Positions 32,448 through 32,977 of a DNA stretch of 64,000 nucleotides are shown here, in pieces. The position numbers and the translations under genes are program-made. The notes beneath the pieces are model-generated. The model did not search any database, was not told where the DNA came from, and worked only from the letters and a program-made list of their open reading frames with translations. How positions within the stretch are numbered: the first letter of the stretch is position 1; every line of letters begins with the position of its first letter. The DNA is from Escherichia coli (GTDB taxonomy: Bacteria; Pseudomonadota; Gammaproteobacteria; Enterobacterales; Enterobacteriaceae), in the NCBI RefSeq assembly GCF_030013205.1, contig NZ_CP122648.1. The stretch is one strand, 5' to 3'.

Positions 32448-32977
32448 TCTTCCCCTGCCTGATTGTTATGTTCGTTTAAATTATGCAGTCTAAGTTTGAT
32501 ACAATCATATATTAAGCAATAGAATCCATAAAGCCCCGTTGGTGGTAAGACAACAAGCGGAGCCTCTTGCGACTTCATCAGGGTTATGTCAGTTAGTGAG
32601 GCTTATCAGGATGACCATGTACCCAAGGGGAGCGAGGCCGAACCGCTGGCAGAGCTTGCATATGGTCTGCAAGTACCGTGACCACCATAAACCTGTTTAT
32701 CCCCTGCGGCGTCTCGCGACGGCGACAGAATGGGGGCATCGGGCTAAAATGCGCTGCACTAAAAGTTTTGGGATTGTTTAGAGACGGTGGCTACGTCATA
32801 GCTTTCAAGTTGAGTCAGTACGTGTTTGACGCTTGGAACGACACGCCGCTATGAGTTAACATCCCAATTACCACTATCAACCACAGCGGCTTTTTCAAGG
32901 GACATAACAGAGCATTTCTTACAGGCAAAAGAGACAGATTTAATCGTCTAACTAACTGTATTGTAAGGAATTTAGTA

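Follow-up and report, generated by a model that had tools for sequence, protein, structure and literature searches.

A conserved structured element at the tRNA-proximal end of satellite-like islands in Escherichia coli and other Enterobacterales

We analyzed a 530-bp segment (32448-32977) of a 64,000-nucleotide stretch of the Escherichia coli contig NZ_CP122648.1 (assembly GCF_030013205.1), here called the window. The segment is located between a cargo gene for an AbiJ_NTD4-domain protein (31623-32447, minus strand; Pfam PF18863, E-value 5.8e-27, also annotated as such by RefSeq in E. coli C) and a displaced copy of the 3' end of leuX (32978-33005, strand unassigned), which is the attachment-site repeat made by the insertion of a newer island. 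The bases 32981-33005 of this copy are a 25-bp exact repeat of 40295-40319, or 28 bp if three further matching bases (ACT at 32978) are included, and the intact leuX gene for transfer RNA (tRNA)-Leu(CAA) was identified by ARAGORN and Rfam at 40295-40379 on the minus strand. Inside the segment lies a conserved structured element of about 185 nucleotides, the core (32516-32701, minus strand), which is a candidate noncoding RNA as defined by a covariance model and by covariation. An earlier note, made from the sequence alone, had described the segment as poor in open reading frames (ORFs), lacking an integrase, and with a GC-richer center at about 32540-32780, and it had suggested either a deletion scar or an unrecognized noncoding element, such as a small RNA or the promoter or leader of the AbiJ-like gene. 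The description was accurate. The only ORFs in the segment are an 80-amino acid frame starting with TTG (32539-32781) and peptides of 31-58 amino acids, none of which matches Pfam even at E<=1, and the GC content is 0.53-0.60 over approximately 32560-32800 as compared to 0.36-0.43 on either side.

According to the earlier note, an integrase was to be expected immediately beside the repeat, as for intB and leuX in K-12. The two K-12 genes are indeed only about 260 nucleotides apart, and the integrase is truly absent from 32448-32977: comparisons with the K-12 leuX-intB region using blastn and tblastx gave chance matches only, and a tblastn search with integrases from the island family that carries the segment had a single match in the window, namely the gene of the newer island at 38294-40246. 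The premise itself was wrong for this type of island. Intact relatives were found at thrW in E. coli LWY24 (locus L056; 13.65 kb, 33-bp bounding repeat), at glyU in E. coli 504211 (L057; about 14 kb, 22-bp bounding repeat), and at leuX in the enteropathogenic E. coli (EPEC) strain E2348/69 (L184; about 15 kb). All three contain, at the tRNA-distal end and reading inward, a tyrosine integrase whose N-terminus is of the DUF6538 type, and variable cargo followed by the noncoding module at the tRNA end. No integrase is thus expected in 32448-32977, since the intact relatives keep it at the far end. Seventeen loci have at least 10 kb of sequence on that side, and about 10 of them show an integrase on the same strand at a distance of 10-13.4 kb. 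In three metagenome contigs (L090, L093, and L078), the element, the spacer, a tRNA-Gly fragment, and an integrase follow in direct succession, with the integrase start about 560 nucleotides past the element; they represent islands of the module family at one tRNA, arranged in tandem or in circular form. The family is thus built without an integrase beside the tRNA. In this respect it differs from the K-12 leuX island KpLE2 and from P4-like satellites at leuX, which share the site and the style of integration into a tRNA 3' end but have a P4-type integrase beside the tRNA, whereas the module family has the DUF6538-type integrase at the far end.

The genes of these islands are in part of phage type and include Phage_cap_E or a major head protein, a Dit-like protein, HNH endonucleases, a helicase, and a DUF6945 initiator-like protein. 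They agree with the usual description of a satellite-like island, namely a size of about 10-15 kb, an integrase, direct repeats at a tRNA gene, a few genes for phage morphogenesis or replication, and no full virion set. The older island belongs to this family of phage-related, satellite-like islands of about 14-15 kb in the Enterobacterales. The integrases of the compared islands share only 37-56% amino acid identity, and the core is the most conserved DNA between these islands. A decay scar of an integrase or some other gene would fit the position of intB in K-12 and the many insertion sequence (IS) fragments in the surrounding island. However, the segment has no similarity to intB, none of its ORFs contains a Pfam domain, and the frames are not conserved, while the full-length module is found unchanged in intact islands and beside intact tRNA genes in many genera and aligns to no gene. 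The deletion scar proposed in the earlier note can therefore be given next to no credence, and the segment is very probably the intact tRNA-proximal end module of an island family with a distal integrase.

The entire 530-bp segment was found at an identity of at least 95% in 622 of 5426 complete E. coli genomes, many of the copies being 100% identical, and it is unannotated in all 622. The element is present at some level in 877 of the 5426 genomes, or about one in six. In E. coli C, the identical 530 bp adjoin the AbiJ gene on one side and an intact leuX gene on the other, and the sole difference in the window from this arrangement is the 7.3-kb newer island (33006-40294) inserted in leuX. 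The AbiJ gene and the module are kept together in 466 E. coli genomes, while in about 154 further E. coli genomes and in most other genera the element has unrelated neighbors (relBE, DUF4145, a recombinase, or hypothetical proteins). Sensitive searches, which for plasmids were blastn searches against 72,556 sequences, showed that positions 70-252 of the segment recur at 70-80% identity at other chromosomal sites and in 66 plasmids of ten genera. All 66 plasmid matches are copies of the whole element, and in the two plasmids that were examined the copy is located in island remnants, adjoining relBE or a tRNA fragment rather than an annotated transfer origin. Plasmid pTB402 (L004, 4402-5177) and about 60 other plasmids have an identical copy beside a relBE toxin-antitoxin pair, which is 73.8% identical to the element in the window and placed near IS26 and IS1. 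The plasmids with this relBE-linked copy are from Escherichia, Salmonella, Serratia, Morganella, Citrobacter, and Enterobacter. In pEh5_2 (L006), a 3' fragment of tRNA-Gly is still attached to the element.

Homologous loci were collected by a scan for invariant 17- and 19-mers in one genome per species, in IMG/VR, and in metagenomes, which yielded 135 loci with the full element, 79 of which were distinct. The genera include Escherichia, Klebsiella, Enterobacter, Citrobacter, Kluyvera, Serratia, Cedecea, Pantoea, Erwinia, Tatumella, and Sodalis. The 3' end of tRNA-Leu(CAA), tRNA-Gly(CCC), or tRNA-Thr(CGT), either as a whole gene or as a displaced fragment, was found on the opposite strand 393-544 nucleotides to the right in 112 of the 135 loci, and the 3' end of tRNA-Leu, tRNA-Gly, or tRNA-Thr had been found at the opposite-strand position in 20 of 31 loci in the first set. 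For most of the other 23 loci, the sequence on that side is too short to show an attachment site. This placement suggests that islands of the family integrate into the 3' ends of these three tRNA genes. The element had no match in 50,697 phage genomes, and the invariant 17-mer was present in only six IMG/VR contigs, as part of a module neighboring another element; in the two contigs examined closely, the neighbor is a P4-like satellite.

A covariance model built from 68 distinct homologs has a single match in the window, at 32516-32701 on the minus strand, with a score of 194.6 bits and an E-value of about 1e-43. The edges of the core are sharp and extend, on the plus strand, from GCAATAGAA.CCATAAAGCCCCGTTGGTG to CACCATAAACCTGTTTA. 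A search with Rfam 15 identified only the tRNA in the region 30000-42000 at E<=1 and nothing in 32440-33010 (571 nucleotides) at E<=10. ORFs that begin at the conserved start positions are 2-57 codons long on the minus strand and 3-54 codons on the plus strand, and the frames shift between clades. Since neither strand keeps an intact and constant frame among the members, the core is no protein gene. Small proteins were considered and rejected: the 80-amino acid ORF on the plus strand, an ORF of about 30 codons on the minus strand, and a hydrophobic ORF of 37 amino acids in the spacer all lose their frame in other members. On the minus strand at 32512-32529, an AUG immediately after the 3' hairpin of the core opens a mini-ORF (MDSIA in the window and MASIV in many others) that has 5 codons in 21 of the 68 distinct flanks and a variable length elsewhere; it was also rejected as a conserved peptide because its length is not conserved. 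The sequence at 32646-32655 (minus strand) is CAAGCUCUAU in copies of the tRNA-Gly type and CAAGCUCUGC in the copy in the window. The ten bases of CAAGCUCUAU are identical to bases of the anticodon arm and variable region of tRNA-Gly(CCC) (L057, L075, and L143, at +476 from the element), which is probably a coincidence since the seven 5' bases (CAAGCUC) are conserved also in islands at leuX. The invariant strings of the core are printed in no paper found by the literature searches, and searches on the island type gave nothing specific. We conclude with good confidence that the core is a structure that no database describes.

The helices of the core were tested on a minus-strand alignment of 68 sequences, using as controls 3' partners that were slid by 1-3 columns and 500 column shuffles. 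Over 35 pairs, 97.5% of the cells form standard pairs, as compared to 27-45% in the slid controls. Changes on both sides are seen in 11 pairs and 151 cells, numbers that were reached in 0 of the 500 shuffles. RNAalifold independently predicted P1, the P1 extension, P2, and P3 from the same alignment. The 5' strand of the closing helix (32681-32694, minus strand) consists of the P1 extension (32694-32689) and P1 (32687-32681), and it pairs with 32546-32531. One position in P1 is A-U in 36 sequences and G-C in 31, and in the P1 extension, which has six pairs, U·G is replaced by C-G in 6-8 sequences. Next to it are hairpin P2 and a pseudoknot stem (32655-32677, minus strand). Four of the P2 pairs (32673-32668/32660-32655) show compensatory changes, and the variants of the helix include CUUGCA/UGCAAG, CCUACA/UGUAGG, CCUGCA/UGCAGG, CUUGUA/UACAAG, and CCGG/CCGG. 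The pseudoknot stem of 3 bp (32677-32675/32666-32664), which reaches into the P2 loop, toggles between G-C and C-G in 30 and 32 sequences, respectively, with the variants GGU/ACC, CGU/ACG, and GCU/AGC. The nested arm P3 (32604-32651, minus strand) is composed of P3a (32651-32646/32609-32604), P3b (32639-32636/32616-32613), and P3c (32630-32628/32624-32622). In P3b, three of the four pairs covary, as seen from the variants GGCC/GGUC, AGCC/GGUU, and GCUC/GAGC. The core thus shows one hallmark of a structured RNA, a conserved fold backed by compensatory changes. These results argue strongly for a conserved single-strand structure in the core, which in all likelihood is a three-armed domain consisting of a long helix joining the two ends, a pseudoknotted hairpin, and a nested stem.

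The wobble pairs favor one of the two strands. The middle pair of P3b is G·U in 61 of the 68 sequences if the minus strand folds, but on the plus strand the two bases would mismatch as A·C, and P3b as a whole is 98.9% paired on the minus strand as compared to 76.5% on the plus strand. Similarly, the 3' hairpin is 97.9% paired on the minus strand and 89.6% on the plus strand, and the P1 extension contains four G·U or U·G pairs, in which U-to-C changes restore C-G on the minus strand. The minus strand is favored because of this asymmetry in P3b, the 3' hairpin, and the P1 extension; it is also the direction of the tRNA and of the AbiJ-like gene. Based on these comparisons, the core is most likely an RNA that is read from the minus strand, and we lean cautiously towards the joint interpretation of an end module with a conserved structure that acts as a minus-strand RNA. 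The noncoding element that the earlier note had offered as one of its two explanations is supported by the conserved structured part at 32516-32701.

The 3' strand of the closing helix has a second possible partner. The invariant segment CACCAACGGGGC (32544-32533) can pair either with the 5' end, giving the closed domain, or with GCUCCGCUUGUUG (32563-32551), giving a terminator-like hairpin, GCUCCGCUUGUUG...CACCAACGGGGC, followed by UUUAU (32528-32563, minus strand). The two pairings are mutually exclusive, and in constrained folding the hairpin state is lower in energy than the closed state by about 5 kcal/mol on average. The core may hence act as a gate for transcription, with two states, at the border of the cargo bay. 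Transcripts that arrive from the side of the attachment site would end at the hairpin in the one state, while the other, closed state, stabilized by some factor or signal, would let them continue into the cargo. We put forward such a termination switch at the edge of the cargo bay tentatively, as a possibility about which considerable doubt is warranted. A broader model, which we hold to be somewhat less probable still, is that the core represents an undescribed class of structured RNA, a hallmark of satellite-like islands with capsid genes throughout the Enterobacterales, and acts as a two-state sensor. The signal could be infection by a phage, or else a protein or small molecule that arises in its course, and the switch from the hairpin to the closed domain would open the bay of defense cargo or control the life cycle of the island. 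The arrangement would be similar to that of riboswitches and attenuators in that the closing helix of a conserved domain may compete with a downstream hairpin for one strand, but it differs from them in the inconsistent strand of the downstream gene, the weak U-tract, and the failure to find a promoter for the element.

Several observations weigh against a structured minus-strand RNA with a gating function. The whole core does not fold with a better energy than shuffled sequences (z = -0.31 on the minus strand and +0.51 on the plus strand), and many of the covarying columns separate two major clades, so that there are fewer independent events than the cell counts suggest. The call of strand depends mainly on P3b, the 3' hairpin, and the P1 extension, the remaining helices being compatible with both strands. 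The hairpin gives no information on covariation because its 3' strand was fixed by the search pattern, and its U-tract (UUUAU) is too weak and fails in a terminator scan. No positionally conserved sigma-70 promoter was identified upstream on the minus strand, where the predicted sites occur at chance level; the only recurring site is one at the attachment junction, in 17 of 38 sequences of the Leu type. A promoter at the left edge of the plus strand, TTGATA-18-TAGAAT, was rejected since the -35 box is located in the variable flank and is not conserved. Papers on RIL-seq and transcript termini in EPEC report no RNA at the locus, as far as their searchable texts and supplements extend. Finally, of 83 distinct flanks, 39 have the nearest ORF (at least 80 amino acids) on the opposite strand and 44 have it on the same strand, which does not agree with a simple 5' leader, and the element is not consistently upstream of co-directional genes, as a riboswitch or attenuator would be.

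The gap to the nearest ORF is about 30-85 nucleotides in approximately 60% of the flanks and 100-730 nucleotides in the others. Cargo ORFs on the same strand begin 32-200 nucleotides past the element, mostly at 42-84 nucleotides, and a sigma-70-like site was predicted in two of 22 such gaps, as compared to 2.7 expected by chance in this insensitive scan. The rarity of such sites is compatible with read-through from the element. The AbiJ-like gene itself starts 69 nucleotides downstream of the core on the same strand, with no sigma-70-like site predicted in the gap, and the retention of the gene and the module together in the 466 E. coli genomes would also suit a promoter or 5' leader that serves the AbiJ-like gene alone. 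However, the neighbors are unrelated, and often on the other strand, in the approximately 154 other E. coli genomes and in most other genera. A role specific to AbiJ, which the earlier note had considered, is therefore very unlikely, and what is left of that suggestion is at best a possible read-through into same-strand cargo such as the AbiJ gene. Since both the neighboring cargo and its orientation vary, the element stands at a fixed edge of a cargo slot and has no particular link to AbiJ.

The mixed orientation of the cargo would also suit an autonomous gene, namely a free-standing, trans-acting small RNA of the island that is read from the minus strand, ends at the hairpin and the U-rich tail, and acts on transcripts or proteins of the island, the helper phage, or the host, with the cargo being expressed independently. 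The conserved unit stops about 15-20 nucleotides past the hairpin, as an RNA gene would, and the long invariant single-stranded stretches could bind targets. Moreover, satellites are known to encode regulatory RNAs. The P4 CI RNA is a satellite noncoding RNA that controls transcription termination inside P4. SviR is described in a preprint as a regulatory RNA of the PLE satellite in Vibrio cholerae (10.1101/2022.04.08.487710). The candidate RNA would be similar to these two in being a noncoding RNA of a small phage-parasitic island, but it is about twice as long, has a long-range closing helix, matches no Rfam family (the search recovered the tRNA), and is located at the attachment-site end by the cargo bay. 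Promoter scans identified no promoter for a small RNA and the U-tail is weak, no complementary site of at least 10 nucleotides is conserved across the islands, and the element exceeds typical base-pairing small RNAs in both its size and the complexity of its fold. Energies of duplexes between the element, over its whole length, and integrase leaders were uninformative. We therefore find a trans-acting RNA unlikely.

A third alternative is that the core acts in cis as DNA, either as single strands (an origin, a priming signal, or a mimic of an origin of transfer, oriT) or as a double-stranded array of inverted repeats bound by protein, such as a far arm of the attachment site, a recombination enhancer, or a packaging site. 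The attachment-proximal noncoding end of an island is the usual place for such sites, and in the tandem or circular junctions the element is located about 560 nucleotides upstream of the integrase gene. The failure to find a promoter agrees with this alternative, palindromes can covary with their binding protein, and folded single-stranded DNA also tolerates G·T wobble. The strings ATCCTG and TATTGTCT may resemble nick sites of relaxases. On the other hand, nested helices, a pseudoknot, and a closing helix with a range of 150 nucleotides, together with compensatory changes and a strand-asymmetric wobble, are unexpected of double-stranded protein sites. A mimic of a helper packaging site is contradicted by the absence of the element from the phage genomes and by the IMG/VR copies, which are modules beside another element, a P4-like satellite in the two examined closely. 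As regards an oriT mimic, all 66 plasmid copies represent the whole element, and the two examined adjoin relBE or a tRNA fragment and not an annotated transfer origin. Since it is the same whichever tRNA an island targets, the element is not the arm that determines specificity. A cis-acting DNA site is accordingly, in our judgment, also improbable, to about the same degree as the trans-acting RNA.

Two further candidates were rejected. One is a guide or bridge RNA. The element resembles the bridge RNA of the IS110 family, a structured RNA of about 180 nucleotides in the noncoding end of the mobile element beside the recombination site, in size, structure, and position. In the islands studied here, however, the recombinase is a tyrosine integrase 13 kb away and not a DEDD enzyme, and the variable stretch does not track the target tRNA, as exemplified by L021 and L012, whose variable regions are nearly identical among islands at tRNA-Leu and tRNA-Gly. 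An invertible segment between the P1 repeats, flipped by a serine recombinase, was rejected since no inverted copy was noticed, although there was no dedicated check of orientation, and since the neighboring serine recombinase is often absent. ROOL and GOLLD are large structured noncoding RNAs of about 580-800 nucleotides that are encoded by prophages near tRNAs, mainly in Firmicutes and their relatives. They resemble the core in being structured, located on a phage-related element, and often near tRNAs, whereas the core is about 185 nucleotides long, enterobacterial, and without a match in Rfam.

Conserved features are also present between the core and the attachment site, as seen in alignments of the homologs on the minus strand. 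Just 5' of the core there is a hairpin of variable sequence (32701-32736), followed by a conserved block, CATCGGGCTAAAATGCG (32737-32753). The spacer proper (32754-32977) contains conserved blocks and hairpins at 32783-32797, 32821-32845, and 32845-32890, and a hairpin with a U-run is located just downstream of the tRNA end (32925-32949). The helices 32821-25/32841-45 and 32845-52/32883-90 have two covarying pairs each. The layout of the spacer is conserved in islands at tRNA-Leu and tRNA-Thr and analogous in islands at tRNA-Gly, so the folded region may extend beyond the core into the spacer. The spacer of about 230 nucleotides with its conserved hairpins probably includes the arm sites of the integrase, for which a scan for direct and inverted repeats gave nothing convincing.

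Of the older island, nothing but the module and two cargo genes is left in the window. Insertion sequences took the place of the remainder, and the newer island then entered leuX and moved the remnant 7.3 kb away. Sequences of the IS3 family and IS30, next to the fec operon, stand where the rest of the older island was. An IS30 transposase gene (29480-30631) is placed inside a broken IS3-family element (fragments 28750-29349 and 30551-30937), and this block at 28750-30937 marks the truncation point of the old island beside the fec operon. Next to the AbiJ-like gene is an ORF of 208 amino acids (30948-31574) without a Pfam match that is inherited together with AbiJ and the module in the 466 E. 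coli genomes and is annotated in one genome as a DUF8453 protein. Because of this shared inheritance and annotation, the ORF and the AbiJ-like gene may represent a two-gene defense cargo. In E. coli C (L001), a reverse transcriptase of a group II intron is found among IS fragments beyond the AbiJ cargo block (5017-6525), and the island remnant abuts fimH.

Next to the tRNA, the newer island (33006-40294) has the gene (38294-40246) for an integrase of 650 amino acids, the N-terminus of which is of the DUF6538 type. Its other products include a resolvase (35604-36233), proteins with DUF4062 and DUF1643, and a helix-turn-helix protein. The island also has an ORF-less stretch of about 480 nucleotides (33006-33484) adjoining the distal attachment repeat, which has no similarity to the studied module but which in a circular form would be located upstream of the integrase, as the studied module is in its own family. 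In E. coli E2865 (L002, 9531-16100), a P4-like satellite with genes for a primase-helicase, an Icd-like protein, Psu, and Ogr/Delta is placed at leuX where the window has the newer island, and similar displacements are seen at L058 and L063. The old module has therefore been displaced repeatedly by newcomers.

The missing integrase is ordinary for the island family of the module, and the notable feature of the segment is its structured core of 185 nucleotides. An island end on the tRNA side without an integrase need not mean decay, since the module family is built that way. The carriers of the module include EPEC E2348/69, Nissle 1917, E. coli C, the type strain, and Shiga-toxin-producing strains of O26 and O103, and the core is a well-supported candidate for a new structured RNA in clinically relevant bacteria and well-studied strains. 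It marks the fixed edge of a cargo slot, the contents of which are variable and often of the defense type, such as AbiJ-like, RelBE, DUF4145, and other genes of this kind, and it would also be a practical marker for locating such slots. If the gating proposal is true, the core would represent a shared control element for interchangeable defense cargo on phage satellites.

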